Under the pieces are notes generated by a model. That model worked only from the letters and a program-made list of their open reading frames with translations. It was not told where the DNA came from and did no database searches. A program made the position numbers and the translations under genes. From positions 879,216 to 943,215 of the forward strand of contig OZ243039.1 of NCBI GenBank assembly GCA_965212025.1: a stretch of 64,000 bases of DNA. The letters run 5' to 3'. Positions 22,319-42,836 of the stretch are shown here, one piece after another (within the stretch, counting starts at the first letter, position 1; each line of letters begins with the position of its first letter). Source of the DNA: Candidatus Oxydemutatoraceae bacterium (GTDB lineage: Bacteria; Pseudomonadota; Gammaproteobacteria; Poriferisulfidales; Oxydemutatoraceae).

Positions 22319-23524
22319 ATGTTTCAGCTTTCAGAAAGAGGCGTGCAGCCAATTTCCATTAAAAAGGCTGGTGTGCAGCCAACAAACATCAAAGTGGTCG
22401 GTGTAGGTGGCTGCGGCTGTAACACCATCAACTTCATGTACGACGAGAAAATTGAAGGTGTTCAATATATCGTCGCAAATACTGACCTTCAGTGTTTGCA
22501 GGCAAGTCGGTGCGAAGACACGATACAACTTGGTGCCAGTAGTTCTGGTGGTCAAGGCGCTGGTGCCGACCCGGAAAAGGCACGCGAGTTTGCCGAAGAG
22601 GATCGAGAGGAGATTCGTGAACGGCTAGAGGGCAGCAATATGGTTTTTATCGCCGCCGGTATGGGTGGTGGTACGGGAACCGGAGCGTCACCGGTTTTTT
22701 CTGAAATCGCACGCAAATCTGATGCGCTCACAGTGGCTGTGGTTACCATGCCTTTCGATTTTGAGGGAGGTGCGCGCAAGAAAATTGCCGAGGAAGGACT
22801 GCGTGAGTTACGTAAAACAGTTGACTCGCTCATCGTGATTCCGAATGAACGAATGTTGAGCATATTGGATAAAGATGTGTCTTTTTCTGAAGCTTGCGCA
22901 TCTGCCAACAAAGTTCTTTATGACGCGGTAAAGGGTATTGCAGAATTGATTACACGGGTAGGTTTCATTAATTTGGACTTTGAAGATGTCAAGAGAGTGA
23001 TGACCAAAATGGGAGATGCCGTGATCGGTACGGGAACCGCAAGTGGAGAGCAACGTGCATACGACGCGGTGACAGCTGCCATTCAGAACCCCTTGTTGGA
23101 TGAAGTGGATCTCCAGGGTGTTCGAGGCGTCCTGGTCAACATCACTGCCAACGAAAAATTTGGGCTGAGAGAGGCTGAAGAAATTGGCAAGGTTATCAGG
23201 ACGATTGCTGACAAAGACGCCCTTATATCAATAGGTGTGGTAATAGAGGAAAGCATGGGCGATGATCTGCGTGTCACCTTGGTTGCCACAGGGTTGGTTG
23301 GCAACACCAAAAAGGAGGAACAGGACTCTCCCGCAAAAGACAGGGTCTTTGCTACACCAAAGCCAGTGTCGCTTACCCCAAGCCCGACCCTCAACTACGA
23401 TGCCTATGACTCACCTGCCTTTGAGCGCAAAAGCAAATATGGCGTTGAGGCGCCGAGTAGTCCTGGGTCTGAGGTTGGAGAACTTCTTGACGTGCCCGCT
23501 TTTCTGAATAAGCAGGCGGATTAA
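22319..23524 (+). CDS. ftsZ: Cell division protein FtsZ
   Basis: GVGGCGCN and AGMGGGTGTGASPV are tubulin/FtsZ motifs, and the C-terminal conserved peptide DVPAFLNKQAD is present. AAGGAG lies upstream of the ATG at 22319. Confidence 0.95.
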   Translation: MFQLSERGVQPISIKKAGVQPTNIKVVGVGGCGCNTINFMYDEKIEGVQYIVANTDLQCLQASRCEDTIQLGASSSGGQGAGADPEKAREFAEEDREEIRERLEGSNMVFIAAGMGGGTGTGASPVFSEIARKSDALTVAVVTMPFDFEGGARKKIAEEGLRELRKTVDSLIVIPNERMLSILDKDVSFSEACASANKVLYDAVKGIAELITRVGFINLDFEDVKRVMTKMGDAVIGTGTASGEQRAYDAVTAAIQNPLLDEVDLQGVRGVLVNITANEKFGLREAEEIGKVIRTIADKDALISIGVVIEESMGDDLRVTLVATGLVGNTKKEEQDSPAKDRVFATPKPVSLTPSPTLNYDAYDSPAFERKSKYGVEAPSSPGSEVGELLDVPAFLNKQAD

Positions 23525-24272
23525 CCAACTGGCATCGTGCCGCCAACAAAATATTTTTTTTGGATTGTCTTGCCTGCAGTACGCACTTGTCACGGTCTGT
23601 AAGACCGGTATGTATTGTCCGGGCGACTGCCCAGTGACACAGCCTGCAATTTCACAAGCTGGTGGAATGTTCGTTGTGTCGCTGGTGCAGTAAGGCGTCC
23701 ATCCTGTCAGGACGGGTGTCTGTCATTTTTCCCGTGCGGCGTTTCTGCCATGGCCTTACAAAGTCTGGCTTAATGGCCAAGCCCCCATCTTCTTATAAAC
23801 ACCAAATACGCCCCTGAGTCACGTGGCCTTCATTAGAAAACAAAGTCTTTGAGCGCAAAAGCAAATATGGCGTTGAGGCGCCGAGTAGTCCCGAGCCTGA
23901 GGTTGGAGAACTTCTTGACGTGCCTGCTTTTCTGAATAAGCAGGCGGATTGACCAACTGGCATCGCGCCGCCAACAAAATATTTTTTTTTGGATTGTCTT
24001 GCCTGCAGTACGCACTTGTCACGGTCTGTAAGACCGGTATGTATTGTCCGGGCGACTGCCCAGTGACACAGCCTGCAATTTCACAAGCTGGTGGAATGTC
24101 CGTTGTGTCGCTGGTGCAGTAAGGCGTCCATCCTGTCAGGACGGGTGTCTGTCATTTTTCCCGTGCGGCGTTTCTGCCATGGCCTTACAAAGTCTGGCTT
24201 AATGGCCAAGCCCCCATCTGCTTATAAACACCAAATACTGCCCCTGAATCACGTAGCCTTTATCAGGAAACA
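23418..24272. repeat. Direct duplication of about 428 bp (2 copies) covering the last ~105 nt of ftsZ and ~320 bp downstream
   Basis: The sequence from about 23418 (TTTGAGCGCAAAAGCAAATATGGCG...) recurs nearly identically from about 23846. Copy 2 carries an in-frame FtsZ tail fragment (...FERKSKYGVEAPSSPEPEVGELLDVPAFLNKQAD*) with no start codon. Confidence 0.85.
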
Positions 24273-25460
24273 AAACCTTTTCGCGTCTTGCGCGCTTAAA
24301 AAACAAGCTGACTTGTGTCCCAACCCCACCGATACACTGCCTCAAGAAAACCACGCCCCCCCACTTTATAAACATCAAATACTGCCCCTGGATCGCATGG
24401 CTCTTATTAGAAAACAAAACCTTTTCGTGTCTTTTACGCTTAAAAAACAAGCTGACTTGTGTCCCAACCCCACCGATACACTATCTCAAGAAAACCACGC
24501 CCCCCCACTTTATAAACATCAAATACTGCCCCTGAATCACGTAGCCTTTATCAGGAAACAAAACCTTTTCGCGTCTTTCGCGCTTAAAAAACAAGCTGAC
24601 TTGTGTCCCAACCCCACCGATACACTGTCTCAAGAGAACCACGCCCCAACACTTTATAAACATCAAATACACCCCTGAATCACGTAGCCTTTATCAGGAA
24701 ACAAAACCTTTTCGCGTCTTGCGCGCTTAAAAAACAAGCTGACTTGTGTCCCAACCCCACCGATACACTGCCTCAAGAAAACCACGCCCCCCCTCTTTAT
24801 AAACACCAAATACGCCCCTGAATCACGTAGCCTTTATCAGGAAACAAAACCTTTTCGCGTCTTGCGCGCTTAAAAAACAAGCTGACTTGTGTCCCAACCC
24901 CACCGATACACTGTCTCAAGAAAACCACGCCCCCCCACTTTATAAACATCAAATACTGCCCCTGAATCACGTAGCCTTTATCAGGAAACAAAACCTTTTC
25001 GCGTCTTGCGCGCTTAAAAAACAAGCTGACTTGTGTCCCAACCCCACCGATACACTGTCTCAAGAAAACCACGCCCCCCCACTTTATAAACATCAAATAC
25101 TGCCCCTGGATCGCATGGCTCTTATTAGAAAACAAAACCTTTTCGTGTCTTTTACGCTTAAAAAACAAGCTGACTTGTGTCCCAACCCCACCGATACACT
25201 GTCTCAAGAGAACCACGCCCCACCACTTTATAAACATCAAATACACCCCTGAATCACATGGCCTTTATCAGGAAACAAAACCTTTTCGCGTCTTGCGCGC
25301 TTAAAAAACAAGCTGACTTGTGTCCCAACCCCACCGATACACTGCCTCAAGAAAACCACGCCCCCCCACTTTATAAACATCAAATGCTGCCCCTGAATCA
25401 CATGGCCTTCATTAGAAAACAAAACCTTTTCGCGTCTTTTACGCTTAAAAAACAAACAGA
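24222..25460. repeat. Tandem array of about 8.6 copies of a 143/144-bp unit (minisatellite-like)
   Basis: Successive starts of TTATAAACA fall at 24222, 24366, 24510, 24654, 24797, 24940, 25084, 25228 and 25371, giving periods of 144,144,144,143,143,144,144,143. Units are over 90% identical. The first ~60 nt of the unit is homologous to the end of the 428-bp duplicated unit. Confidence 0.9.
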
Positions 25461-25498
25461 CTTGCGCGTTTTTCCGGTTATTAAGTTTGCGTATGTCT

Positions 25499-27094
25499 TC
25501 AGCGAACCATACCGCCCAAAAAGACTTTCAGGCGCAATATTGGCTCTGGCTCTTCCAGCACCTGGATCAGGGGAATCAGGCTGCCAGAGTGACTCACTCC
25601 TGGCGCTTCAGCCACGCTGTTCCGGGGGAACGCCCGGACTTCGTGTTCAGCACCACCCGGCACTCCCCAAAAATTCACCATGCCAGCTTCTGCCGATGTC
25701 GGCAAATCAATATGCTGCTCCATTATCAGATCTCCAACTGACAGTTGTATCCGGCACTTCAGGTCAAGCGGCACTTCATCAACTGCGGTTGCAAAGTCAG
25801 CATGGTGCGTGGCGCGTCCATAACCGTCATCTCCCAGATATTTCAGGTGTACCCGTACATGGCCATGTGCTTCGGATGTCAGTTGCATGGCCAATGTCCC
25901 TTCAAGAACGTCGAGCAAAGTAAATGCCGCCGTGCCCATCGCGCCTGCTCCGGCGCGGTTGACTGCCTGGAGCGAATAGCGTATCTGCCCCCCTCCTGCG
26001 TACGCCTCGCGTAGCTGCGCCAAGGCATGGCCTGACAGCACATAAGAAGTGCCGGTTCCCGCGATGGTATAGCGTTTTCTGTCCAGGGAAAGCCGGTAGC
26101 TGTCTATCGTCGCCCCGTTGCTGCTCGCCGCTTCCCAACCCAGGTTCACCCGATTTGTGGACTTCCATCTGGCCCGCAAACCTGAAGGTCTGCCAGGCAC
26201 CGCTATGGTGCTGAACGTGCCCCAGTTTTCGGATCCCCGGGCGAGCACCCCAACGCCCTTTCGGTTACTCGCGTAGACCTGTAAGCCATAGCTTCTGTAC
26301 GGCAGCAAGTGACCAATCTCAATCTCAGTGGCAAAGGTACCTGACGGGAAAAAAGTCTCGGTGCTGCGCCCTGCAGCACTCACAACCACCACGTAGCCAA
26401 AACCAGAGCCCGCAGCGCGATCAGGAGAAGCCGCAGGCGCATCGACCGCCAGGGAAGCGCAACCGTCACGTCTCATGGTCGCCAGCACCAGGCGAGCAGT
26501 GGTCTGCCCAGGCACAAGCTCCGTTATCGTCGTCGTGCCCGGAAGCCCCGGCAAATGGAAGTGACCGGTTGCGGGGTAGCCAACGACATCTCCGTGCACA
26601 GCGCGCAGCTGGTACGGGTGGGGGCAAGCCCCTTGGCTGTTTTCCCGAAACCCGGCCAGAAAATCTCCGTCAAAGTCAAAAGTCAGCGCTGTGACTTTCC
26701 GCATTGTTCCTGCCAGCTTGAGTTCGTAGTAATCGACCGCTGAACTTCCCGCCGCCCACGTGAAGCGCAGGTGATCCAGAGATTCCCAGCTCACCGCCAA
26801 ATCAACCGGTGTGGCAGGAATATCGGCAAGCGCACGCAGCAATGGCAGCGTGTGGGCATTGCCAAAATGCCAGGCTCCCGGTTCCCAGCCGGCATAAGTC
26901 GTGGCACCTTCGCATACCTGCCCCGCCACGGTCGGACAACGCAGCTGGGTCAGAGTACGGGGTGAAGCGCCACCCGTTGGGCCACTGCCCACCAAAGCTG
27001 CCCTCGCAGACACGGGGGCGTAACTGCGGTCAATCGCAGCGTCCGGACTCAGAATGGCCCACCAGACTGCCGATGCTGCCCGATTCCCCAACAA
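25499..27094 (-). pseudogene. C-terminal continuation of the giant GLUG-repeat protein, separated from the upstream ORF by a frameshift
   Basis: The N-terminal part (...AIDRSYAPVSARAALVGSGPTGGASPRTLTQLRCPTVAGQVCEGATTYAGWEPGAWHFGNAHTLPLLRAL) continues the module pattern of the 2909-aa ORF. The two frames overlap at 27030-27094. Fn3-like segments follow. Confidence 0.6.
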
Positions 27095-30000
27095 CAGGGT
27101 TCACCGCATAGCTGTCCTGAATTCGGTGGACATTGGTTCCGACCAGCCCCCCGGTGTAGGAACGGCCCTGTACCGTACCGAGCGCATAGCCCGCATGGAC
27201 AGAACCGGCGTTGAAGCCCACCAATCCACCAACACGCTCATCCCCGCTGACCGACACGTCGGCATAGCTGTATGCAATGGTGCTATTGCTGAAGCCAACC
27301 AGACCGCCGACGTGATCCCCTTCCTCAGCGGTGGCCGAACCTGTCGCATAACAGTGCAAAATCGTGCTTCCATGGCTGTAGCCAACCAGGCCGCCGGCGT
27401 AGTCCCGCCCTTCACCCGAGACGATCACCGCCGCGTCAGCACTGCTGTGCAAAATGGTGCCCCCCCGGATCCGACCGATCAAACCACCGGCAGACTCAAT
27501 CCCGCGTACCTGCGAAGCCCTCACCGTGCTGCCCACGACCCGACCTTTCCCTTTCACATAACCAACCAGGCCGCCGACGTATCTGCCTCCATCAACCACG
27601 GCACTGGCGCCACTGTTGACCAGCAACCCCCCGTTGCTACCTACCAACCCGCCAACACCGGTACCGACCGTGCTAAAAACCTGTGCAGACTTCACGACGC
27701 TGTTCATGACAGTCCCCCCGTTAAAGCCGACCAAGGCTCCGACTCTGTTTTTCCCCCTTACCCGTGCGTCAACGAGCACCACCCCCTTGACAGTCCCGTC
27801 TTCTGCAAGCCTGGAAAACAGGCCAACCTCGTCCGTTTGCGGGCGGTCAATGTACAAGGCAGAAATTTGCCGTCCTGCCCCGTCGAAGGTGCCTGAAAAA
27901 TTCTCTATCGGATGAAAGCCGGCACCGCCTTGCCACTCCCGACTCGGGCCGGCGTCTATGTCTGCCGCCAGTACGTAGTGGGCCTGCAGATCAGAGCGCA
28001 CGTCCTGTAACTGGCACAACGTGGCAATTTGCCACGGGTTGTCGCTGCTGCCGTCACCCGGCGCGCCTTTCAGACCTTTGCCGGCGCATTCCGGAAAGCG
28101 GGTCACCGTCCGGATCGTTGACGGCGACCCGGTGCCCACCGTGTTATGGGCGAAGGCTTCCAGCCGATATTCAAAGGCACCCACCAGTTCCGCAAACTCC
28201 ACTGTGACCGGGCTCAAAGGATCCACCGGCGCAACGTCGCGTTCCTGTACCAGCTCCCCGGACGCATACAGGCGTATCCGGTAAGCCAAACGCAAAGCCA
28301 CGCCTTCCGCAGGCGCTGCGTAACCGGCGTCACCCGGCCTGCGGCCATAACCATCATTGGAAGGGGGTGCAAAGCTGAGTCTCAGCGTGGAGATCCCCGG
28401 CACCACCCGCACATCAGCCGGAGAACCGGGAACGTCCAGCAGGCGCACGGAAACACGGGCGGCTTCGCCGACACCGTAAAGGTTGTAGCCACGAACCGTT
28501 AAAAGGGGCGTGCTCCCGCCTTCATGGTCAGCGCGCAGCTTCTGCAGCCAGTCCGGTTCCGCCATGAAGTAATCCGAGAGCGTCTCCCCGGAAAGCGCTC
28601 CACTTTCCACGCGGTGACCGATTCGTTCACGTCCGTCCAATGGGCGTTCCCAGCGCAGCAGCAAGACAGACGGGGATTTCCACTGTGCCTGCAGGCGCAA
28701 GGGTTTGCCGGGAGTCTCAAAGCCACGCAGAACCGGCAGCGCATTGTGATCGCCGAAGGACCAGACCTCGGCACTCCAGCCCAAGTACGTTGACCTTCCC
28801 GCACACGCCAGGCCAGGGGCGGTGGGGCAGCGCAGCTGCTGTAGTGTCCGCAGGGAGACTGATCCCTGCACGGTGTCATCTGCCACAAAAGGCACGATGC
28901 CAGCATTGACGCGGGTCAATCCTGCTGCATGGCTGTCGACGATGCTTCCCGGGCTGTTGCCGGCAAAGCTTCCGGGCTGTCCGACTCCGGACACCGACCC
29001 TGCCGCGTAGCTGCGGCTGACGGTGCCCTGGTTGTTCGCCACAAGACCCGCAACCAGACCTTTCCCAATCACAGAGGCTGTTGTGTAACTGTCAGTCACC
29101 GAGCCCTGGTTGTCTGCAACCAGACCACCCGCCAGGGCTGTTCCCGACACCAAGCCTCCGGCATGACTCGTGGCGATGCTCCCGCCTGTCAGGTTTTTTC
29201 CGACCAGGCCACCCGCGACCTGGGATCCCGGCTCCATCGTCAACCGGGCCGCGCTGCCTCTGATCACGCCTGCGTTAATGCCAACGAGTCCTCCTGCAAC
29301 CTGCCCGCCAAAAAGTGAACCTGTTGCTCCACTGTTCACGACCCTGCCTCCCACGTTCCTGCCCACCAGGGCTCCCACGTTGACGCTTCCCCAAAGCTGC
29401 GCGTTCACCAACACGACCTGCTGCAACAGACCGTCCTGAAGCTGCGCAAACATGCCGACATCTTCCAGTATCCCGGAGCGCACCCTTAAATGGAAAATCC
29501 GATAGCCGGCACCATCAAGGGAACCGGAAAAACCGGTGATCGGCGCAAAGCCTTCCCCGGCCCGCCAGTTCCGGGATGGACCTGCTTCAATATCGCCTGC
29601 CAGCCAGTAGTGGGCTGCAGGGGCGGAGCGAATATCCTGCAATTGGCACAGCGTGGCAATCTGCCAGGGATCGTCCTCGCTGCCCTCACTGTCCGGGCCG
29701 CTTGCCGATGCCAGGGCTTCCCCGTCGCACTGCCAGGGACGGGTAAATACCGGCAGGGAAAATGACGGTCCTTCCCCAATCCTGTTATAGGGCGTCGCCA
29801 CCACTTCATAGCGGCTGTCGCCTGCCAAACCCGAAAATTCCACGGCCGCAGATGTTTCTCCGTCTGTGTGCGTACGCTCCCGTTCCTGCACCGGTTCCCC
29901 CCCGGCGTACAGCCGTACCCGGTAGCCCAGACCTACGGAAACCCCGGCACCCGCATATCCGTATGCCGGGTCTTCCGGTGACTGGCCATAGCCGTCGTCA

Positions 30001-33000
30001 GCCGGAGCCATAAGCAACACACGCAGCGAGAACGCCTGCGCCGATGCCCGAACGGCTGCCAATTTACCTGGGGACTCCAGCAGCTCGATCGCAACCGCCG
30101 TTGCTTCACTCATGCCATGACGGTTATATCCACGTACGCTGACCTGCAGGGAGTTACCGCCCCCATATTTGGAACGGAGGCTTTGCAACACGTGCCCGCC
30201 GAGCGTAAAAAACGTGGACTCTGTTTCCAGGGAATACCCTGCCACCTCCACCCAATAGCCGGCGTTCAGGCTTCCTGTTTTCGCGGCTGTCCAACTCAAT
30301 TCCAGCTCATCTTCCAGGTTCCATTTCGCCTGCAGGCGGGAAGGGGAAGCTGGTGGCACCGGTTGCAGGGCGCGATGGACCGGAAGCGTCTGCCCGTCTC
30401 CGAAATACCAGACTTGGGTGCTCCAGCCGGAGTAACTGGCCGCTCCCTGGCACGTGTCTCCCGGCGAAAGGGGACACTGCAATTGCGCCAGCGTGCGGGA
30501 AAAACTGCTTCCTGCGGCGGCGGCGTCCCCGCTGCCCACGGGTTCCAGTGCGTTGCTGTCGGCACTCGGTTCCAGGGCGTAATTCGCAGCCATGCCGGTG
30601 CCAGTAGAGCGCCCCACCAGTGTGCCCACCTGATCATTCCCACTGACCAGGCCAGTCGCATAACTGTCCAAAATCCTGCTGTTATTGTTGGTGCCGAGTT
30701 CACTGTTTCCCACCAGTCCGCCTACCCGCTCATTTCCGCTGACCGGCCCGGTTGCGTAGCTTTCCCCGAGCCAGGACACATTGCGCCCCACCAGGCCACC
30801 CACAGCTCTTTCCCCGTTGACCGTTCCCGCCGAATAAGATCCGCCTATGAGACCAGAGCTATAACCTGCCAACCCGCCTACCTGCCCACTTCCGGTGACA
30901 GATCCGGTCGCGTGGCTACTGAGGATTGACCCAAAGCTTTCTCCTACCAGCCCTCCCACACCTCCTTTCCCGTTGACTGTTCCTGCCGAATAAGATCCGC
31001 TTATAAAGCCACGGTTAGAACCCGCCAGCCCGCCCACAGAATAATGCCCGTTTACTGCTGACTGCGCGTAACTGTGAAAGAGCGTAGCCCAATTGAGCCC
31101 CACCAGCCCACCAACATGTTCTACCCCGCTCACACTTCCTCTCGCGTGGGAACTGCGAATCCTCGCGCCCGTGAAGTTACTGCCCACCAATCCGCCTGTC
31201 ATAATGCTGCGACCCCAGGCACTAACGGTAGACTCCGAATAGCTGAGCTCAATCAACCCACGGTTCTCACCTGCCATTCCTCCCACACGATTCCGCCCGA
31301 CTGTCAACCCCGTCACCGTGCTGCCCTTGATGCTTCCATTCGCCTCAACGCGTCCTGCCAGAGCCCCTACTGCATCTCTGCCCCGCACCGTGACATCCAC
31401 CAGCGCCAGGTTTTGCAGGGAACCGCCGCTGAGCCTCCCGAACAGCCCGACATAGTCTACTGGCCCGGGATTGATCATGAGATTCAGAACGCTGTGGCCA
31501 CTCCCGTCCAGAGAGCCGGAAAAATATTCAATCGGAGGAAATCCCTTCCCGTCCCGCCAACCGTGGCTTTGCCTCGCGTCTATATCGTTTGCCAGCCGAT
31601 AATGCGCTGCCGTGTCATAACGTATTTCCTGCAGCTGGCAAAGTGTGCCGACCTGCCATGGATCATCCTCGCTGCCGGAGCCTGCTGCCGTTACCACCGC
31701 TGCCCATGGACATGCCTCAACGTAGGTGAAAAGCAGCACTTCCACCGTTGGGGTTGCGCCCGCTTTGTTTTTGGCAAATACCTTGACTTCGTACCTGGAA
31801 CTATCTTCCAGACCTGAAAATTCCACTACGGTCGAATTTGACCATCCCTGTTGTGTTACGCGCCGCTCTTCCTTCAACCGACCTTTTGAAAACAGCCGCA
31901 CGTGGTATGCCAGATCCAGGGCAATTCCGCCTGCCGGTTTCCCGTACATGCTGCTGCCCGGGGCACGTCCGTAGCCGTCACCGGCAGCCACGACAATGGT
32001 GACCCGTACCGTCGACAGCCCTGAAGCTGTCTGGATTTCCACCGCCCCCGGAACGTTCATTAAATGGAAACTCCCCGACGCTGCATCTCCCGCAACGCCT
32101 CCTCTGCTGCCGCGTATGGAATAATGGATTTCACTGCCGCCTGCGTAACGCCCACGCAATTCAGCCATCAATGCACTGCCAAACGTAAAACGGGATGCCC
32201 TGGCATCCCGAATGATTCCGTCCACCTCCACCTCAAAGAAATTAACGGCAGCTCCCCGATGCTCCCACCGCAGTGCCCATCTACCCTTCCAATTCCAGCC
32301 TGCCCGGACTGCAAGTGGTGCAGCGGGAACATCCGTAATTGCCCGGAGCACAGGCAGCGTGCGGGAGTGCCCGAAATGCCAAATTCGTGTATCCCAATCC
32401 AGATATACGCCAGCTGCCAGGCAAAGGTTGACGGGTTCTATCGAACACTTCATTTGCTCCACGGTGCGTAAGTCACTGTCCTGTACTGTGCTGTCATTCC
32501 TGCCCACGAGGCTATCCCCGTTGCCAAGCCTGCTGGCATAACTGCGGGCTATCGTGCCACTGTTGACTCCGACCAGCCGGCCTGTCAAAACAGCTCCGCC
32601 TACAGCACCGGTGCTATAGGCGCTTCTGACCGAACCGCTGTTTACCCCCGTCAGTCCGCCTGTCTGACTGTCTCCGGTGACTCTGCCTTGTGCATGGCTA
32701 TCACTGATGATTCCTTTGTTTTCACCGACCAGACCGCCGACTTGCTTCTTTCCACGTACTTCCCGGTATGCATAGCTATTCACGATGCTGGCGTTGCCTT
32801 CGCTCACACCCACCAAGCCCCCAATCCCGGAGGCTGTTCCGACAACCTCAGTATCCGAGTGGCTGCCACTGATGATGCCGCCAAGGTGCCAACCAACCAG
32901 GCCGCCGACTTGACTGTCTCCGGTCACTCTGCCTTGTTGTGCATGGCTACCACTGATGCTTCCTTTGTTTTCGCCAACCAGGCCGCCGACTTGACTGCCT

Positions 33001-35759
33001 CCGGTCACTCCGCCTTGTGCATGGCTGTCACTGATGGTTCCTTTGTTTTCGCCGACCAGACCGCCGACTTGACTGGGTCCGGTCACTCTGCCTTGTGCAT
33101 GGCTATTCACGATGCTGGCGTTGCCTTCGTTCACACCCACCAAACCCCCAACCCCGGTGGCTGTTCCGACAACCTGGTTATGCGCGTAGCTGCCACTGAT
33201 GGTGCCGTCAAGGTGCCGACCCACCAGACCGCCGACTTGACCGGATCCGGTCACTCTGCCTTGTGCATGGCTGTCACTGATGGTTCCTTTGTTTTCGCCG
33301 ACCAGACCGCCGACTTGACTGGGTCCGGTCACTCTGCCTTGTGCATGGCTATTCACGATGCTGGCGTTGCCTTCGCTCACACCCACCAAACCCCCAACCC
33401 CGGAGGCTGTTCCGACAACCTGGTTACGCGCGTAGCTATCACTGATGGTGCCGCCGCCAAGATGCCAACCCACCAGACCGCCTACGTAGCCTCCTGTGGC
33501 GTGAGTCCCGGTCACATCTCCAGTCGCGCGGCTGGAAGTGACCGAACCCATGTTTTTGCCCACCAGACCCCCAACTTGATTGCCTCCTGTTACTGTCCCC
33601 AACGCGCGACTGTCTTCAATCGTGCCACCGTCGTTCTGACCCACCAGCCCGCCGACAACGAATGCATCGCGGGAGTTCTCCCCAACATTTACCGTCGCCG
33701 TGCTGTTGCGAATGACACCGCCCTGATTCAGGCCAACCAGTCCACCGATGGTTCTGTACCCGTCAACCTTGCCATCAACTTCGCTGTCCTCAATCGTCCC
33801 CTGAACGTTCAGCCCAACCAGAGAACCGACATTCACCCCTTTTTTCGTCAAAAAATTCACCAGCTTCACGCGCCTTAGAAGGCCGTCCTGCAGCTTGCCA
33901 AACAGCCCGACATTCTCGAATTCTCCGCCCGCCACGCCAATCTTCAAATTGGAAATCTGGTAACCGTTGCCATCAAAAGTACCAGAAAAATCCTTGATTG
34001 GTGTAAAACCGTTTTCCCAGCCATGCGTCACAAACGCTTCTATATCTTTGATCTGGACATAGTGTGATTGGGGCGATGCCCCCATGTCTCGTAAATGGCA
34101 TAGGTTTTCTACCTGATAGGGATCACTTTCAGTCCCGGAACCTGCCATGGCTTGCGAATTCACAGGGCACGCGACCTCAGGATCCATATAGGGAAATTGG
34201 CTGCCATGAAAATAGGCATCCCCGTAGTTCAGTGCACTGAAGACCCTTGGATTTTTATAGATATTGCCCATCCCGGCAAAGAAGCCATTGCACTTGTTAA
34301 AAGAGACATAGACGCCCACCACGGATGACGTGTTCTCATAAAATGCCGGCGATCCGGAGCCTCCAAATTCAACACGGTAGCCCGTAAAAGGAGTCAAAAA
34401 CCGCCTTGCACAAACGACTCCTGAGCAAACAGCTGATTTCGGCGTATCCGGATCCAAAGTGAATGTAAACGCGTTTCTGAATGGGGAATATTGCTGCGCC
34501 AGCAAATACGAGTGGTGCAATGCGTAGCCATCGAAGACCTCTGGGCTATGCGCCTTCCAGTCCAGTAGCTCGTAATTCCCCCAGCCACTGAACTGTCCTA
34601 CGATGCGCACCAGCCCCCAGTCATTTGCAGCACTCCCTGCTATAAATCTTGAGCCACCCGCCCGTGCCCGTCCCGCTGCTTCGCTTTTAAGTACAACGCT
34701 GAAATCGCTATTGATATAAGGCTTGTTTTCAGCATTGGGGTCATCCACATCTGCCGCGAAAAGATGCCAGACAGACAGGGCGTAGAGCGCACCGTCCCCT
34801 GACTTGTTTTTCAGCAAACTCCCGGTACCGCACCCTGCCCCCTGTTCGCCATACGCGCAGATGAGCACAGTGCCCAGGGAAGCCCTGCGCACGTGCGCAG
34901 GCATGTCGCTGTTCACAAAATCGGCAGTGTTTTCCGTTTTGTCGTGATACTGGCATTCTCCAGACCGCGCCTGGAATTTTTGCAGTTGTGTGCCTGGCAA
35001 CTCGCCGTTCCTGTCTTTGAAAGTGTGATTGACTTTTTCTACGGCGAACGGAAATGCATCGGGTTCCAGGCGGGACGCTGTGGGAGTCCTGAACTCCACC
35101 ACTATGGCGTCTCCTGACATCGGATATGACCAGAATCCGTCTCTGTTTCCGTCTCTGTTTCCGGCTCGACCCTCGCCGGTATATTCCTCAACAGGGTCTT
35201 GTTCGTCAGTTAGGCTGTACAGCTTCACCGCCATGCCTGGATCCAGATGAAAATTCCTGAGGTACACCCCCAGACTGACGGCTGCAGGGGAATGAATATG
35301 CGCCTGCCAGACATCAAAACCATCTTCCTGTTTGACCAGCGCCCAGTTGGCGCGCCGCAAACGGACTTCCCGATAGATACCGGTGTAGTTGACTGTGCTC
35401 ACGTTGAGCAGCTCCAGGATTTTGTCTTCTTCCTGCGTGCTGAAAGCTCCCAGATCCAGTCGTTGCGCTCTGGTGGGGTACACGCTCCGGGCGGCCTCGC
35501 GCGCGTGACGCACTTCCGGCAGGGGGCTGGCCGAGAAGCTTTGATCTACCAGAGATTCCTGACCCTGGCCAAAAACGGGCACGTTTGACGTGATGATGAA
35601 TACACCCACGATCAACCACTTCCGCCAGCCATGGCTGGCGGAACTCTGCGTATCCAGAGATCTGAAACCTGCTTTTTTCATCGTGAATGGCTTATGGGCC
35701 ATGCGAACCGAGAAAGGAGAGTGTAACCCACCTACAACATAAAATTCCTGCCACAACAT
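27030..35759 (-). CDS. Giant secreted modular protein: N-terminal trypsin-like serine peptidase domain followed by four modules of GGLVG (GLUG-like) beta-repeats, a Cys-linker and an Fn3-like domain
   Basis: The ORF is 2909 aa, and with the downstream fragment totals about 3,400 aa. The N-terminus has a long basic region and a hydrophobic core (MKKAGFRSLDTQSSASHGWRKWLIVGVFIITSNVPVFG|QG). A GGSGSP motif (coding nt ~34350-34370) and a VWH segment resemble the PA-clan serine protease catalytic Ser and His contexts. A module entry motif recurs four times (DPYQVENLCHLRD..., DPWQVGTLCQLQEI..., DPWQIATLCQLQDI..., NPWQIATLCQLQDV...). Dozens of VGGLVGxN repeats follow, and each module has a conserved linker of the form TLxQLxCPxxxGxxCxGAxxYxGWxxxVWxFGxxxxLPVLRA. 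The likely true start is 35702 or 35681. Confidence 0.75.
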   Translation of the reverse strand: MLWQEFYVVGGLHSPFSVRMAHKPFTMKKAGFRSLDTQSSASHGWRKWLIVGVFIITSNVPVFGQGQESLVDQSFSASPLPEVRHAREAARSVYPTRAQRLDLGAFSTQEEDKILELLNVSTVNYTGIYREVRLRRANWALVKQEDGFDVWQAHIHSPAAVSLGVYLRNFHLDPGMAVKLYSLTDEQDPVEEYTGEGRAGNRDGNRDGFWSYPMSGDAIVVEFRTPTASRLEPDAFPFAVEKVNHTFKDRNGELPGTQLQKFQARSGECQYHDKTENTADFVNSDMPAHVRRASLGTVLICAYGEQGAGCGTGSLLKNKSGDGALYALSVWHLFAADVDDPNAENKPYINSDFSVVLKSEAAGRARAGGSRFIAGSAANDWGLVRIVGQFSGWGNYELLDWKAHSPEVFDGYALHHSYLLAQQYSPFRNAFTFTLDPDTPKSAVCSGVVCARRFLTPFTGYRVEFGGSGSPAFYENTSSVVGVYVSFNKCNGFFAGMGNIYKNPRVFSALNYGDAYFHGSQFPYMDPEVACPVNSQAMAGSGTESDPYQVENLCHLRDMGASPQSHYVQIKDIEAFVTHGWENGFTPIKDFSGTFDGNGYQISNLKIGVAGGEFENVGLFGKLQDGLLRRVKLVNFLTKKGVNVGSLVGLNVQGTIEDSEVDGKVDGYRTIGGLVGLNQGGVIRNSTATVNVGENSRDAFVVGGLVGQNDGGTIEDSRALGTVTGGNQVGGLVGKNMGSVTSSRATGDVTGTHATGGYVGGLVGWHLGGGTISDSYARNQVVGTASGVGGLVGVSEGNASIVNSHAQGRVTGPSQVGGLVGENKGTISDSHAQGRVTGSGQVGGLVGRHLDGTISGSYAHNQVVGTATGVGGLVGVNEGNASIVNSHAQGRVTGPSQVGGLVGENKGTISDSHAQGGVTGGSQVGGLVGENKGSISGSHAQQGRVTGDSQVGGLVGWHLGGIISGSHSDTEVVGTASGIGGLVGVSEGNASIVNSYAYREVRGKKQVGGLVGENKGIISDSHAQGRVTGDSQTGGLTGVNSGSVRSAYSTGAVGGAVLTGRLVGVNSGTIARSYASRLGNGDSLVGRNDSTVQDSDLRTVEQMKCSIEPVNLCLAAGVYLDWDTRIWHFGHSRTLPVLRAITDVPAAPLAVRAGWNWKGRWALRWEHRGAAVNFFEVEVDGIIRDARASRFTFGSALMAELRGRYAGGSEIHYSIRGSRGGVAGDAASGSFHLMNVPGAVEIQTASGLSTVRVTIVVAAGDGYGRAPGSSMYGKPAGGIALDLAYHVRLFSKGRLKEERRVTQQGWSNSTVVEFSGLEDSSRYEVKVFAKNKAGATPTVEVLLFTYVEACPWAAVVTAAGSGSEDDPWQVGTLCQLQEIRYDTAAHYRLANDIDARQSHGWRDGKGFPPIEYFSGSLDGSGHSVLNLMINPGPVDYVGLFGRLSGGSLQNLALVDVTVRGRDAVGALAGRVEANGSIKGSTVTGLTVGRNRVGGMAGENRGLIELSYSESTVSAWGRSIMTGGLVGSNFTGARIRSSHARGSVSGVEHVGGLVGLNWATLFHSYAQSAVNGHYSVGGLAGSNRGFISGSYSAGTVNGKGGVGGLVGESFGSILSSHATGSVTGSGQVGGLAGYSSGLIGGSYSAGTVNGERAVGGLVGRNVSWLGESYATGPVSGNERVGGLVGNSELGTNNNSRILDSYATGLVSGNDQVGTLVGRSTGTGMAANYALEPSADSNALEPVGSGDAAAAGSSFSRTLAQLQCPLSPGDTCQGAASYSGWSTQVWYFGDGQTLPVHRALQPVPPASPSRLQAKWNLEDELELSWTAAKTGSLNAGYWVEVAGYSLETESTFFTLGGHVLQSLRSKYGGGNSLQVSVRGYNRHGMSEATAVAIELLESPGKLAAVRASAQAFSLRVLLMAPADDGYGQSPEDPAYGYAGAGVSVGLGYRVRLYAGGEPVQERERTHTDGETSAAVEFSGLAGDSRYEVVATPYNRIGEGPSFSLPVFTRPWQCDGEALASASGPDSEGSEDDPWQIATLCQLQDIRSAPAAHYWLAGDIEAGPSRNWRAGEGFAPITGFSGSLDGAGYRIFHLRVRSGILEDVGMFAQLQDGLLQQVVLVNAQLWGSVNVGALVGRNVGGRVVNSGATGSLFGGQVAGGLVGINAGVIRGSAARLTMEPGSQVAGGLVGKNLTGGSIATSHAGGLVSGTALAGGLVADNQGSVTDSYTTASVIGKGLVAGLVANNQGTVSRSYAAGSVSGVGQPGSFAGNSPGSIVDSHAAGLTRVNAGIVPFVADDTVQGSVSLRTLQQLRCPTAPGLACAGRSTYLGWSAEVWSFGDHNALPVLRGFETPGKPLRLQAQWKSPSVLLLRWERPLDGRERIGHRVESGALSGETLSDYFMAEPDWLQKLRADHEGGSTPLLTVRGYNLYGVGEAARVSVRLLDVPGSPADVRVVPGISTLRLSFAPPSNDGYGRRPGDAGYAAPAEGVALRLAYRIRLYASGELVQERDVAPVDPLSPVTVEFAELVGAFEYRLEAFAHNTVGTGSPSTIRTVTRFPECAGKGLKGAPGDGSSDNPWQIATLCQLQDVRSDLQAHYVLAADIDAGPSREWQGGAGFHPIENFSGTFDGAGRQISALYIDRPQTDEVGLFSRLAEDGTVKGVVLVDARVRGKNRVGALVGFNGGTVMNSVVKSAQVFSTVGTGVGGLVGSNGGLLVNSGASAVVDGGRYVGGLVGYVKGKGRVVGSTVRASQVRGIESAGGLIGRIRGGTILHSSADAAVIVSGEGRDYAGGLVGYSHGSTILHCYATGSATAEEGDHVGGLVGFSNSTIAYSYADVSVSGDERVGGLVGFNAGSVHAGYALGTVQGRSYTGGLVGTNVHRIQDSYAVNPVVGESGSIGSLVGHSESGRCD
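32680..33480. repeat. Intragenic near-identical tandem DNA repeats (246 bp, 82 codons, about 3 copies) inside the giant gene
   Basis: The unit starting CCGGTCACTC(C/T)GCCTTGTGCATGGCTGTCACTGATGG recurs at 33001 and 33247 with over 95% identity, and a more diverged copy lies upstream. The units encode GGLVG repeat blocks. Confidence 0.8.
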
Positions 35760-36439
35760 TCGCTATCTGTTTTCCTGGCTGACGTTCTGAGCGACCCCCT
35801 GACTCTGACCTTCACCTACTTTGACCTTATGTCTCAGCATGGCTGAACGCGCCGGAGAATCACTTAGTGGGTCAGTTGTACAAAATAGCGCCCAACCTGG
35901 CTGCCATGAGAAGATGCCGACCTCATCCGACCGGGAAACCCCGGAAACAGTGTGCCAAAGCGTGCAGTCTTAGTTTGTGGGCTTTTTGGTCTCCAGGGAG
36001 GTGGGCTGGTGGCAATAGTCGGTACTGCGATTTCTTGTTTTTAAGCGGGAAGGCGCGAAAATCGCGGTTAAGAATAAAGGGCAGAGGTTCCCGGCTTACC
36101 ACCAAAGTGGAGAGGCACCGGAAAAGCAATTTGGCAATAAGGCTTCATCACCGTCTGGTGGCTTGCCACCAAACCCTTTGGGTGCGTTGCATTACTCTGA
36201 CCCAGCCCCCTCTCTGTTAAATTGAGAATTTTGCCATCACACCAAGAAACACATAAACGCTAGCCCCCATGCCATGTCTGACCCTCTTTTGAGTCGGTGA
36301 ATGTGGTGCCCAAAACAGGAAAGAGAATCCATTTTCTGACCACCTGATGACCCCACCTTTTCAGGATCAAGGGTTCTGATTGTTTTCGCCAGAAAACAGA
36401 TTTCTGTTTTACTTCCTTGGGTGTTAGAGTCATGTTTCA

Positions 36440-37910: not shown

Positions 37911-38918
37911 TTATTCGACTAACATATAGTCCCCTTCTTTTTTTCTCAAGTCTGCATAAATTTTGTCTGTGACCCGGTAGAGCCAGGGTCGCAGTTTTTT
38001 GTCCCGGATTTTGGCTTCGAGTCGGTTTTCTGCGTCTGCCGTGGCGAGTGCGGTGGAACTGATGGCAAACCAAGGCTGCGAATTTTCCATGTAAGCGTCT
38101 ATTGTGACAACCTGCCCATTGAAGGTTTCGTACACCGCCCTGACAGTGTTACGGGGCAAATCCCTCACCGTACTTTCCCGGCTTTTCACATCCAGAAAAT
38201 TTAAGGGATCCACCAGATAGCTGATTTCATTCAGGGCATTTTCATTGACGGTGGTTTCCGATGGCAGGGAGACAATGCTTAGACTCCCAAGGGCTTGTTC
38301 GCGCTGAATGAACAGGGGACGCACATGGTTATCACCGGTAATTTTTATTTCTCTGATATCTCCGGCGAGCAGGCTTAGAACCAGATTATCGACCCAGTCC
38401 AGCGCTTTCTCCGGTACTTTCAGCGACCGGTTTATCAGCCAGACTACATCTTGCCCGTAAATCCTGACGAAACGCGCATCGTCCATTTTTCTGCTGGTCT
38501 TGCCTATGATCAACTGCCATTGATCCTCTCCGTACATGCTGAAGAGAGTATTTTTTGCACCCGGATCCTGCGGGTCTTTAACCCCCAGTTCTCCGTAAAA
38601 CCTGCTGTCATCTGTTTTTCGTTCAATGATTTTTGCTTCCAGAATCTCTTGCAGAAGTTTCCTGATTTTGTTGGTGTCCGCAGGATAGCCAGCCAGTTCC
38701 GAAACTTCCCATCCGCGTTCAAAAGAACGCTTGATTTCGGTCTTTTCACCTTCTCTCTGTATGACGATCTTCGTCAAACTGTTCAGACTTATGAGTGAGA
38801 AATTGGCAAAAAGCGGATCCTCGCCAGTGGCGTAGATCTCTTCTTTTTCTGCCCGGAAAAAGAAGATTGCCATAACGGTCAGGACGATGCCGAGTATCAG
38901 CAACAGAATGTTTCTCAT
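37911..38918 (-). CDS. DUF4340-like protein, last gene of the GldG-type ABC operon
   Basis: It has an N-terminal TM segment (MRNILLLILGIVLTVMAIFFF) and is a ~335-aa periplasmic-type protein. Its start overlaps the GldG-like gene stop by 4 nt. Confidence 0.45.
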   Translation of the reverse strand: MRNILLLILGIVLTVMAIFFFRAEKEEIYATGEDPLFANFSLISLNSLTKIVIQREGEKTEIKRSFERGWEVSELAGYPADTNKIRKLLQEILEAKIIERKTDDSRFYGELGVKDPQDPGAKNTLFSMYGEDQWQLIIGKTSRKMDDARFVRIYGQDVVWLINRSLKVPEKALDWVDNLVLSLLAGDIREIKITGDNHVRPLFIQREQALGSLSIVSLPSETTVNENALNEISYLVDPLNFLDVKSRESTVRDLPRNTVRAVYETFNGQVVTIDAYMENSQPWFAISSTALATADAENRLEAKIRDKKLRPWLYRVTDKIYADLRKKEGDYMLVE

Positions 38919-40792
38919 ATCAAAAGATTCCTCTTGCGTTTTCTGAACAGGGCGACGATAAGTGCCACGAGTACTACCAGTGCGGGGATCATGCCGATGT
39001 TGAAAATTTTGAGCCGAGTGCCCAATTCTTCTATGTCTTTATTCTGTTCATGGCGTACTTCGCGGAGTTTTTTGCGAACGAGCACGACATTTTCTCTGAA
39101 TTTGTTGATTTCTCTTTGCTGTTCTGCCGTCAGCAAAGGGGAGTTTGCGTCACTGCGTTTGGCTTGCAACTCGGCTAACTTGTCTTCGGTTGTCCCCAAC
39201 TCCGCTTGCAGCTTCTCTTCGGTATTCCGATAGCGTTTATTCGCGGCGTTTTCAATTTCTGAAACGCGCGTGAAGGGACGGAAAAATGCTTCGCGCCCGC
39301 GAATGCCCAACAAGTCTGAGCTACCGGACAAATTCTCAAGTACGTTGAGTACGAAGGTGCCGTTGCCAGCGAAAGCCTGCACAACGCGTTGGCCGAAAAA
39401 AGATTGCACGTTGACCCACATGCGGTCGCTCAGTATGTCCACGTCCGCAACCACTACCATATTTGCTGGCGACTGCGTGTTTTTCAGGTGCGTGGATGCC
39501 GTGTCTGGTGCCACAGGAGGGGTTTCAAAAGCGCTTTTCAGGTCAGCCGATATTCTGGCGATGAGGCTGAGATTCGGTTCCTTTTTCGCGCCTCGAAATA
39601 TGTTGTGCAGCATTTCCTGCGAAGACAGAAAGGGAGCCGAGGAGACGGACAGCAGTGCCGAGTCCTGCCCGGTATGAACCAAGGCTTTCAACTGAATTTT
39701 TGAGTCGTCCGGGTAGGGTTTCACGTATGAGCTCAGCGCGAAATTGAGTATCTGAAGGTGCTGCATGACGACGTCTTTTTTATCGAAATCCGCTTTGATC
39801 ATACCCAACATGGAGAAATGGTCGAAACGTTGCTGGCTTTGCGTACTGACCTGCAGTGAGCGTGGTGGATCTGCGACGATTCTCTCCGGAACCTCAAACC
39901 CCCATTTTCGAAACAACCCATTCAGCGAAGAGCCCCGCTTTTGCGGCGAGGCAGGATCCTGTGCTTGCAGGGGGGTGGGATCCACTTCGGCGAAAGGGTC
40001 AACGAAAAACAGCGCGCGGCCACCACGCATGACAAATTGATCAATTGCGTACAAGGTTTTGGGTTGCAAGTCTTTGGGGTGAACCACCATCAGCACTTTG
40101 GCTTCCGGGTCAATGGTCTCGACGGTCTGGTGGATCAGGCGAAGATCAAAGAGCTGGCGTATTTGTTCGGCAATGACCCATGGGTTGTTGCGTTGCCCGG
40201 TGGTCGTGTCAATGGCGGGAGGCAACATATCCAGCGATGTCATCAGGGCGACCACCGGCCGTTCTGTTTCCACGAGCCGGTAAATCATTTTGTCAATTTC
40301 GTATTCCAGAAGATCTTCTTTTTCCGGTCGCAAAAACGGAATGACTTCAACTCCGTCCAGGGAATTGCTTGCCGCCAAGCCAAAATACAGCACTTCGCCG
40401 TTGGGCAAGGCGACAGCCTGTATTCCCAAGCGGGTTGCACGGTCTTCAATTTCCGAGAAAGGCTTCGGGTCAGCAAAATGCAATTTTATGTAGCCATGGG
40501 AGTTAGCGGCGAACTCTTCGAGTATTTCACGGACCCGGAGCGCGTAATTTCTGATTTCCGGACGATCCTTCGAGGCTTCCTCCGAGAAAAAAAAGTAGAA
40601 ATTCAACGACGAGTCCAGCTTGTTCAGCAGCCGGTATGTCCCTTCGTTGAGCGTGAACAACCTGTCTTCGGTCAAATCCAGTTTGTAGCCTTGCAAAGTC
40701 AGGTTGCTCAGAGCGATCAGCGTGACGAACAACACGGCCAGTAATGGCAAGGTCAAGGCGTGATCTAAACCCTGCAACTTGAATCTGTTCAC
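38915..40792 (-). CDS. GldG-like ABC-transporter auxiliary component
   Basis: The product is 625 aa with N- and C-terminal TM segments, a large extracytoplasmic domain and a C-terminal coiled-coil/TM region (KLQAELGTTEDKLAELQ ... IGMIPALVVLVALIVALF). It is translationally coupled to the ABC permease. Confidence 0.55.
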   Translation of the reverse strand: MNRFKLQGLDHALTLPLLAVLFVTLIALSNLTLQGYKLDLTEDRLFTLNEGTYRLLNKLDSSLNFYFFFSEEASKDRPEIRNYALRVREILEEFAANSHGYIKLHFADPKPFSEIEDRATRLGIQAVALPNGEVLYFGLAASNSLDGVEVIPFLRPEKEDLLEYEIDKMIYRLVETERPVVALMTSLDMLPPAIDTTTGQRNNPWVIAEQIRQLFDLRLIHQTVETIDPEAKVLMVVHPKDLQPKTLYAIDQFVMRGGRALFFVDPFAEVDPTPLQAQDPASPQKRGSSLNGLFRKWGFEVPERIVADPPRSLQVSTQSQQRFDHFSMLGMIKADFDKKDVVMQHLQILNFALSSYVKPYPDDSKIQLKALVHTGQDSALLSVSSAPFLSSQEMLHNIFRGAKKEPNLSLIARISADLKSAFETPPVAPDTASTHLKNTQSPANMVVVADVDILSDRMWVNVQSFFGQRVVQAFAGNGTFVLNVLENLSGSSDLLGIRGREAFFRPFTRVSEIENAANKRYRNTEEKLQAELGTTEDKLAELQAKRSDANSPLLTAEQQREINKFRENVVLVRKKLREVRHEQNKDIEELGTRLKIFNIGMIPALVVLVALIVALFRKRKRNLLI

Positions 40793-41523
40793 GACGCCTT
40801 CCGCTGTTCAAGGACAATCACATTGGCCGTCAGCCAGAAAGCAATCATCAGCAGGAAAAAGACAAAGTCCTGCAAATTGATGACTCCTCTGCTGATGGCC
40901 GCAAAATGAGAATAGAAGCTCAAGGAAGAAATCGTGTCTACGACTACCTGAGGGAACCATAGCTGGAAAAAATCCAGAACCAGCGGCAGGCTGCTTAGCA
41001 GAAAAGTAAAGCAAATGACCAGGCTGACGATGAAAGCGATCACTTGGTTTTTTGTGCTCGCCGAAATGCAGGAGCCAATTGCCAGGTAGGATCCGGACAT
41101 CATAAAGCTGCCTAGGTAGGCAGCGAGTATCGCTCCGTTGTCAGGCGACCCAAGGTAGTTCACGGTGAGCCAGATCGGGAATGTGAGTGCCAGAGCCAAA
41201 GCCAGGAAGAGCCAGGCGGCAAGGAACTTTCCCAGCACCGCCTGCGTCATGGTGATTGGCAGTGTCATGAGCAATTCTATGGTGCCCGTTTTGCGTTCCT
41301 CTGCCCAAAGACGCATGGTGATGGCGGGTATCAGGAACAGGTACAGCCACAAATGGAAATTGAAGAAGGGAACCAAGTCTGCCTGGCGACGTTCGTAAAA
41401 GCCGCCCAGATAAAAAGTAAATGAAGCGCTCAGCACGAGGAAAATCACAATGAACAAATAAGCCAGCGGCGAAGTGAAATAGCTTGCCAGCTCACGACGC
41501 ATGATGGCCAGAATAGTACTCAT
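40789..41523 (-). CDS. ABC-2 family transporter permease (GldF-like)
   Basis: The 244-aa protein has about 6 TM segments. It is overlap-coupled to the ATPase upstream. Confidence 0.65.
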   Translation of the reverse strand: MSTILAIMRRELASYFTSPLAYLFIVIFLVLSASFTFYLGGFYERRQADLVPFFNFHLWLYLFLIPAITMRLWAEERKTGTIELLMTLPITMTQAVLGKFLAAWLFLALALALTFPIWLTVNYLGSPDNGAILAAYLGSFMMSGSYLAIGSCISASTKNQVIAFIVSLVICFTFLLSSLPLVLDFFQLWFPQVVVDTISSLSFYSHFAAISRGVINLQDFVFFLLMIAFWLTANVIVLEQRKAS

Positions 41524-42446: not shown

Positions 42447-42836
42447 GGTTTGACGCGACTGGTTTTGAACCCGTAAATTTTCTCCCAAATGCTTGCGTGC
42501 CACCGGATGCCCACTGGCTTTTCGGTTTCGCTGCTGCCGGTTTCGCTTGTCTCACGATCTTACGCAATTGAAACGTGAAACCGCTTCCCGGGTGCGCCCG
42601 CAGATTCTTGCCAACGGGTCACTGCCCCGGCTGTTTGGAAGGTTTTTCATAGCCATGCTCCGGATAACTCCAAAGTAATCCCGATCGTTTGTTCCCGTGC
42701 TTGTGCCAGCTTTCCCTAAGAGTTTCGAAAAGCCGTCTCAATTATAGTCAAAATTCACAGCTTTCAAGCGGGGGGAATCGCCCGAATGATTGATGAACGC
42801 CAATGTGGAGGTGGAAACCGTGCTGCCTTTCACCCG

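Follow-up and report, generated by a model that had tools for sequence, protein, structure and literature searches.

This work concerns a giant gene carried on the minus strand of a 64,000-nucleotide (nt) stretch of contig OZ243039.1 from a Candidatus Oxydemutatoraceae bacterium (the whole stretch is referred to here as the window). With moderate confidence, we read its product as an exported, modular protein of ~3,393 amino acids (aa) from a Porisulfidus-like sponge symbiont, in which an N-terminal protease of the lysyl-endopeptidase type is tethered on a stalk of GLUG beta-helices and Fn3 domains. The protein is probably a surface or secreted protease-adhesin. Its predicted architecture consists of (i) a signal peptide, (ii) a propeptide-like region, (iii) an S1 serine protease, (iv) a linker, (v) three modules, each of one beta-helix and two Fn3 domains, (vi) a fourth module of one beta-helix and four Fn3 domains, and (vii) a spacer and a C-terminal tail.

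The reading frame, its interruption and its paralogs

In the assembled sequence, the gene is split into two minus-strand open reading frames (ORFs) that overlap by 65 nt in different frames: one of 2909 aa (27030–35759) and one of 531 aa (25499–27094). The frame of the first terminates in ...SIGSLVGHSESGRCD and a stop codon, and the second resumes with ...DAAIDRSYAPV..., the remainder of a GLUG repeat. Taking one G out of TCCGGAC (window position ~27044) joins the two in a continuous frame of 3419 codons. Residues 27–3419 of this repaired frame align with each of two intact homologs, of 3629 and 3335 aa, in a single BLASTP high-scoring segment pair at 68–70% identity. The first-pass annotation (made from the sequence alone) had taken the two ORFs for one gene with a single frameshift. 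The collinearity of the repaired frame with both intact paralogs bears this out, and the two ORFs are read as one gene throughout. The same annotation gave a length of ~3,400 aa; a single giant protein stands, with its length adjusted to ~3,393 aa because every homolog ORF starts at the position that matches M27 (MKKAGF... in the window, MKEAGF in the homologs), making this the conserved start. The gene and the site of its interruption are placed as follows:

25499..35681, minus strand: whole gene; start codon M27 at 35679–35681, stop codon at 25499–25501, ~3,393 codons once the extra base near 27044 is taken out
27040..27050, minus strand: frameshift site; one extra base in AGTCCGGACGC, with no homopolymer run; once repaired, the fourth beta-helix reads ...SLVGHSESDAAIDRSYA...

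The G+C content of the gene is 58–63%, against 49–55% in the flanks, which fits the composition of the giant protein (Gly, Ala, Val and Ser together account for 44% of its residues).

The two intact homologs (L003 and L002) are encoded in the chromosome-level genome of an uncultured Candidatus Porisulfidus (OZ244118.1), and the nearest-relative genome is a gammaproteobacterial, sponge-symbiont metagenome-assembled genome (MAG) of Candidatus Porisulfidus. This taxon is listed among known gammaproteobacterial sponge symbionts in the Lycopodina hypogea genome note (PMC12988363). The window organism is a different member, with ~70–78% protein identity to its Porisulfidus relatives. At least four paralogs, in two tandem pairs, are present in the 3-Mb Porisulfidus genome, where two further upstream paralogs match the window protein at 71%. 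At least eight paralogs of ~10 kb are found in a sponge metagenome assembly (ERZ25071281, ENA), distributed over three contigs in arrays of two or three.

The extra base at ~27044 may be an error of assembly, or else a recent lesion that inactivates the window copy. If it is real, then the window copy would be a pseudogene: its product would reach at most 2,883 aa, cut inside the fourth beta-helix and without the four Fn3 domains and the tail, and other paralogs would carry the function. We regard this as unlikely, albeit deserving of serious weight. The frameshift falls outside any homopolymer, related assemblies also hold interrupted paralogs (L001, L005), and in a multi-copy family the loss of one copy would be tolerable. 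Against a lesion, the 531 downstream codons are fully open and ~70% identical to intact homologs, with all motifs and the tail kept, so that any lesion would have to be very recent.

The interrupted relatives bear on the same question. Several giant paralogs in ERZ25071281, where coverage is 15–19x, are fragmented (L001, L004, L005), with ORFs of 286 and 3064 aa in L001, and of 226/117/900 aa and 2365/162/53/472 aa in L005. The fragmented L001 copy and the intact L002 chromosome copy share 99.5% identity, and over 10 kb only two 1-nt insertions and 50 substitutions separate them; the two appear to come from the same sponge project (P0003 matches the L002 N-terminus). An interruption made by two single-base insertions in an assembly of this depth looks like consensus error, which is therefore a realistic explanation for the interrupted copies, the window copy included. 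Since several paralogs are split in ERZ25071281, one of them by two 1-nt insertions, automated annotation of this giant-protein family is unreliable. For the window, the two ORFs call for merging into one gene annotation, or for flagging as a possible pseudogene.

The protease head

Reading the giant protein as an intact, exported protease on a stalk, we begin with its head, the features of which are the following:

35568..35681, minus strand: probable Sec signal peptide, 38 aa; long basic n-region, hydrophobic core WLIVGVFIITSNVPVF, then G|QGQ; read from the sequence and conserved in paralogs
34908..35567, minus strand: N-terminal conserved region (frame residues 65–284), a likely propeptide, as in lysyl-endopeptidase precursors
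34209..34907, minus strand: S1 (chymotrypsin-fold) serine protease domain (frame residues 285–517), by profile homology
34764–34766, minus strand: His332, predicted catalytic, in SVWH
34620–34622, minus strand: Asp380, predicted catalytic, in DWGLV
34356–34358, minus strand: Ser468, predicted catalytic, first Ser of GGSGSP
34125..34208, minus strand: linker from the head to module 1 (HGSQFPYMDPEVACPVNSQAMAGSGTES), conserved in paralogs

Homology supports well the prediction that the head is a lysyl-endopeptidase-like serine protease of family S1 in which the His-Asp-Ser triad is complete. A word-indexed search with the head recovered only six close relatives. An exhaustive HMMER search with a narrow family profile, built from these relatives, recovered 572 proteins at E <= 1e-3 among 1.8 billion sequences, 28 of which (E <= 1e-30) span nearly the entire head. 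The link to known proteases comes from the more distant relatives (E = 1e-8 to 1e-11), which bear Pfam Trypsin_2 or Trypsin exactly over the aligned stretch. When the narrow family is aligned by hhalign with the Trypsin_2-bearing relatives only, the probability is 98.3% (E = 1.9e-14) and the three catalytic motifs are in register. In the head family alignment, the three catalytic columns hardly vary (His, 124 of 126 sequences; Asp, 122 of 125; Ser, 92 of 95). A profile combining the window protease domain with family members (A3) matches lysyl endopeptidase/Achromobacter protease I (4NSY, 1ARB) at E = 3.5e-41; for trypsins and factor Xa, the E-value is ~1e-5. The triad is invariant in the A3 alignment and across the paralogs, and the GxSGxP oxyanion motif is kept.

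The head thus matches the earlier suggestion of a PA-clan peptidase with a GGSGSP serine and a VWH histidine, the triad now being assigned to His332, Asp380 and Ser468 by profile and transitive homology. The protease is present where a ~500-aa domain had been proposed, although that span divides into a propeptide-like region and a protease domain of only ~230 aa. The region ahead of the protease domain, of ~220 aa, co-occurs with it in distant relatives (profile positions 80–180 are matched) and is likely a propeptide. One relative, P0023, carries in its annotation a faint precomputed match to PF27052 (Lysyl_endopep_N); the match is weak and concerns that relative only. Further upstream, the signal-like N-terminus has no lipobox Cys, and is probably a Sec signal peptide. 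A 12-nt repeat of 2.7 copies (window 35136–35167) encodes GNRDGNRDG within the propeptide-like region; homologs are one unit shorter.

The head falls on the same S1 branch as lysyl endopeptidase/Achromobacter protease I (1ARB, 4NSY), with which it shares (i) the order His-Asp-Ser, (ii) the motifs TGS...H, D(W/F)xLL and GxSGSP, and (iii) a C-terminal extension, together with what is likely an N-terminal pro-region. It differs in being very divergent, in lacking a Cys after the catalytic His, and in the size of the C-terminal extension (~2,870 aa, as opposed to ~180 aa in lysyl endopeptidase).

The GLUG/Fn3 stalk and the C-terminal tail

The remainder of the protein is made up of four modules and a short tail:

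32331..34124, minus strand: module 1 GLUG beta-helix; N-cap, ~16 rungs, two-Cys C-cap
31686..32330, minus strand: module 1 tandem Fn3 pair; Pfam fn3 at residues 1285–1337, homology to the modelled module 3 pair
30360..31664, minus strand: module 2 GLUG beta-helix; cap matches Peptidase_M26_N and Streptococcus pneumoniae IgA1 protease
29694..30359, minus strand: module 2 tandem Fn3 pair; homology to the other Fn3 pairs
28713..29672, minus strand: module 3 GLUG beta-helix; ~7–8 rungs, the modelled module
28062..28712, minus strand: module 3 tandem Fn3 pair; model and Foldseek, DGYGR in a loop of the second domain
26822..28040, minus strand: module 4 GLUG beta-helix; interrupted by the frameshift
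25538..26821, minus strand: module 4 two tandem Fn3 pairs (four domains) and a variable Pro/Glu-rich spacer; Pfam fn3 in the 531-aa ORF, both halves homologous to the other pairs
25502..25537, minus strand: invariant C-terminal dodecapeptide LRLKVFLGGMVR-COOH; 13 copies

The beta-helical repeats stand well above what chance would give: Pfam PF07581 (GLUG) matches them at E = 1.5e-76, scoring 248 bits where the cut-off is 20.5, and 14 stretches are each significant on their own. With a strict regular expression, 33 GLUG cores are counted, which extend to roughly 40 rungs. The motifs named in the first-pass annotation are all there: four entry motifs (at residues 546, 1366, 2030 and 2574), four two-Cys linkers (at 1099, 1756, 2305 and 2935), and four occurrences of DGYG(R/Q). 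A degenerate copy of the latter, RRDGCAS, lies at 3098, within the additional Fn3 pair of module 4. Alignment with 70 GLUG proteins identifies the entry motif as the N-cap and the two-Cys linker as the C-cap, both generic parts of GLUG domains. The 26 Cys residues of the protein occur in regular pairs, one pair per N-cap and one per C-cap, which fits an oxidising, extracytoplasmic location; the pairs presumably form disulfides outside the cytoplasm.

An AlphaFold2 model of module 3 (mean predicted local distance difference test, pLDDT, 82.7; >92 in the helix) is a right-handed parallel beta-helix capped at both ends. In a Foldseek search, the last 220 residues of this model match tandem FnIII pairs such as titin A77–A78 (E = 7e-8), and Pfam PF00041 (fn3) is matched twice in the protein (E = 3e-10 and 2e-8). 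The five Fn3-pair regions are all homologous to one another, giving ten Fn3 domains in total. A parallel beta-helix of the IgA1-protease kind had been proposed for the repeats, and phmmer aligns module 2 with residues 124–326 of the S. pneumoniae IgA1 protease (6XJA, 7JGJ; E = 5e-6), in accordance with that proposal. Fn3-like domains had likewise been recognised, as one per module; there are two per module, and four in the last. Four modules there are indeed, but with lengths of 544 to 849 aa in place of a uniform ~700 aa. Literature searches on the GLUG motif and its structure found nothing relevant.

Within the module 1 beta-helix, a recent 246-nt tandem duplication (three rungs, 93% identity; at 32977–33482, within 32896–33482) overlies an older 78-nt periodicity. 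From this recent duplication, the number of rungs is evidently changing by slippage or unequal exchange.

The far end of the protein is unusually constant. All 13 collected copies, including truncated gene fragments in downstream repeats, end in LRLKVFLGG(M/L)VR after a spacer of variable length, with M/L as the sole varying position. Across the 12 codons of the tail, synonymous variants number at least eight, against a single conservative replacement, and the peptide is therefore under selection at the protein level. A search with a 54-aa profile returned only mini-ORFs from 3' repeat arrays, and no unrelated protein. Four known signals were considered for the tail and rejected on sequence: PEP-CTERM, GlyGly-CTERM, an outer-membrane-protein beta-signal and a C-terminal domain of the type IX secretion system (T9SS). 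The tail has no terminal aromatic residue and, with only three residues after the GG, no transmembrane helix. A ubiquitin-like role for the LRL..GG tail, or docking of a product-like C-terminal Arg into the protease, is speculation.

The absence of an autotransporter, two-partner secretion (TPS) or RTX terminus, noted earlier, is upheld by Pfam searches of both ORFs. Neither shows an autotransporter beta-barrel or TPS (haemagglutination activity) domain at E <= 0.1, and the C-terminus consists of Fn3 domains instead of a translocator barrel. There is no HemolysinCabind match, while a signal-like N-terminus is present, and no Por_Secre_tail (T9SS) or PEP-CTERM match.

The description that suits the giant protein best is that of an S1 protease akin to lysyl endopeptidase, fused to a stalk of repeated GLUG/Fn3 modules. 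Its logic resembles that of two known groups, yet it belongs to neither, since it has no barrel and no M26 catalytic domain. The first group comprises the M26 IgA1 metalloproteases of Streptococcus and Gemella (ZmpA/IgA1P; 6XJA, 7JGJ, 7UVK) and BACOVA_03286 (3N6Z). Unlike these, the giant protein has no M26 zinc-metalloprotease domain and no LPXTG anchor; its enzyme, a serine protease, precedes the helices, of which there are four, separated by Fn3 pairs, and the host is Gram-negative. In line with this, the only M26-related Pfam match on either ORF is Peptidase_M26_N, at 27.3 bits just below its cut-off of 27.7, with no match to the catalytic domain (Peptidase_M26_C), and the ZmpA and ZmpB NCBIfam models score 23 and 14 bits against cut-offs of 3000. 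The second group, the SPATE/IgA1-protease autotransporters (S6: Hbp, EspP, Hap, and the Neisseria/Haemophilus IgA1 protease), has a C-terminal beta-barrel translocator that the giant protein lacks; the latter differs further in its S1, lysyl-endopeptidase-like protease, its GLUG helix and its interleaved Fn3 domains.

If the protease and stalk act as one molecule, the following sequence of events may be proposed. The signal peptide would direct the giant protein through Sec, and disulfides would form between the paired cysteines outside the cytoplasm. The propeptide would serve as a folding aid or inhibitor before being removed. The protease would remain tethered to a rod tens of nanometres long, the beta-helices and Fn3 domains of which could bind ligands of the host or the matrix. 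The enzyme would thus act some way out from the cell, in the manner of SPATE autotransporter heads or of the wall-anchored Zmp proteases of streptococci, with the conserved C-terminal tail most likely serving as an attachment or sorting element.

Alternatively, the protease and the stalk may part company. In this case, as happens to many secreted bacterial proteases that bear C-terminal extensions, the head would be released as a soluble enzyme, with the beta-helix/Fn3 part left as a separate adhesin or matrix component, or degraded. Lysyl-endopeptidase precursors shed both their N- and C-terminal extensions, and the linker that follows the protease domain is conserved and exposed. Further, the tails of close head relatives are quite different, as expected of exchangeable extensions: they consist of PPC and Calx-beta domains, cadherin-like domains, or GLUG and Big_9 (these relatives are encoded among housekeeping genes). 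We nevertheless hold separation to be improbable. An extension of ~2,870 aa, conserved in at least eight paralogs, is far larger than known secretion aids, the invariant tail implies that the far end has a role of its own in the mature product, and the present data give no indication of a cleavage site.

It is also conceivable, and a little less probable again, that the protein serves chiefly as a structural element, such as a surface layer, a sheath or a matrix fibre, with a protease that serves self-processing only or is inactive on other proteins. About 85% of its mass is beta-helix and Fn3, the enrichment in Gly, Ala, Val and Ser described above suits such a role, and many GLUG proteins have no enzyme domain at all. 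The retention of the triad and of the GxSGxP motif in all paralogs and 572 relatives argues instead for a working enzyme; self-processing alone could, but rarely does, uphold such conservation. Lastly, a collapsed or chimeric join of shorter paralogous genes is very improbable: the repeats inside the gene and the several family copies in relatives speak for it, but the four beta-helices, at 34–46% mutual protein identity, are too divergent to collapse, and the full domain order of the 3,393-aa protein is collinear with that of at least four independently assembled homologs of 3,335–3,629 aa, including one from a chromosome-level MAG.

Several results weigh against a tethered, exported and working protease, the reading that we prefer. 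The gene is interrupted as assembled. The 544-aa head has no direct sequence match in Pfam (E <= 10), NCBIfam or the PDB; the Trypsin_2 match that had been expected for it is absent from the window protein itself. The narrow family profile ranks 1ARB first, at an E-value of only 0.2, and the AlphaFold2 model of the head, built on a seq­uence alignment of seven members, has a mean pLDDT of 31.8 and is unusable for judging the fold. Asp225 of Achromobacter protease I confers its specificity for lysine; the window protein has Asn at the aligned position, in a stretch of weak alignment, and substrate specificity can therefore not be inferred. Finally, the genes near the window copy and near its relatives' copies are housekeeping genes, with no secretion or anchoring machinery among them.

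Flanking repeats and gene neighbourhood

The gene is followed by an array of short repeats, directly 3' of its stop codon:

24205..25489, minus strand: nine tandem units of 143/144 nt

A ~60-nt core of this unit (ACGAAAGGGTTTTGTTTYCTGAYRAATGC...GCGRTTCAGGGAAGTGAG) is present again, several times in tandem, downstream of each paralog in L001–L004, always on the strand of the gene (nhmmer E = 1e-18 to 1e-4). The unit has no Rfam family, no supported RNA fold or covariation, and no excess of promoter-like or terminator-like sites. The 3' repeats of relatives (L003 20740–21300; L004 9460–9500 and 21038–21080; P0247–P0253) contain truncated copies of the last ~50 codons of the gene, ending in LRLKVFLGGMVR and a stop, which gene callers annotate as mini-ORFs of 49–94 aa. 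These truncated copies could be scars of unequal crossing-over, or donor cassettes.

Two further observations concern the flanks. Firstly, window positions 23419–24274 hold a 429-nt direct duplication (96–98% identity) of the last ~105 nt of ftsZ and its 3' flank. In the second copy the ftsZ stop codon is changed from TAA to TGA, and each copy finishes in a partial 144-nt unit. Secondly, the ~350 nt before the start codon are 80–84% identical across species (window 35700–36050, compared with L002 9573–9862 and L001 9687–9976). Since this identity equals or exceeds that of much of the coding sequence, it suggests a shared promoter or leader region.

The giant gene is convergent to ddl-ftsQ-ftsA-ftsZ and divergent from purB, and the remaining genes of the window are housekeeping genes. 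It had been placed where lpxC would normally follow ftsZ; lpxC is indeed not found after ftsZ, nor anywhere else in the window. Past purB, ~2 kb from the giant gene, is a minus-strand operon (37911–42503) resembling the gliding-motility ABC transporter genes GldA, GldF and GldG together with a DUF4340 protein. All of its matches fall under the equivalog cut-offs, and nothing connects it with the giant gene.

A more far-reaching possibility, which we offer as doubtful, is that the tail acts as a novel signal for sorting or attachment, by which a Gram-negative sponge symbiont could present giant serine proteases on a tether with no need of an autotransporter barrel. The tandem paralog arrays, in which the 5' and 3' ends are conserved and the downstream repeats hold truncated 3' gene cassettes, would then form a recombination system that varies a host-facing protein.

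Giant proteins rich in Fn3 are to be expected of sponge symbionts. Fn3 is repeatedly reported among the domain types enriched in these bacteria (e.g., PMC3977351, PMC9531527), and the window protein resembles the Fn3-rich, "eukaryotic-like" proteins and giant adhesins of sponge symbionts in its lineage and in its ten Fn3 domains. The reports give domain-count statistics, and none of those found describes the architecture of the giant protein, its protease head or its conserved C-terminal tail. Every domain of the protein is of a known kind. As far as our searches went, four aspects are not described elsewhere: (i) the combination of domains, (ii) the divergent protease branch, which no curated model detects, (iii) the expansion in tandem arrays, and (iv) the invariant C-terminal peptide. 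The family places a divergent, uncatalogued branch among the lysyl-endopeptidase-like S1 proteases, and indicates that the GLUG helix of the IgA1-protease type can act as a repeated stalk module.

To live in a sponge, a symbiont has to keep its place in the host matrix, escape being eaten, and engage with the proteins of the host, and the molecules for this symbiosis are mostly known only as lists of enriched domains. The giant-protein family is a concrete candidate, and one in which its bearers are apparently heavily invested, given the number of ~10-kb paralogs carried in a single sponge metagenome and in a 3-Mb genome. A protease that is predicted to be intact is here combined with a long, putatively adhesive stalk, and the head domain as well as the C-terminal tail are open to direct tests.

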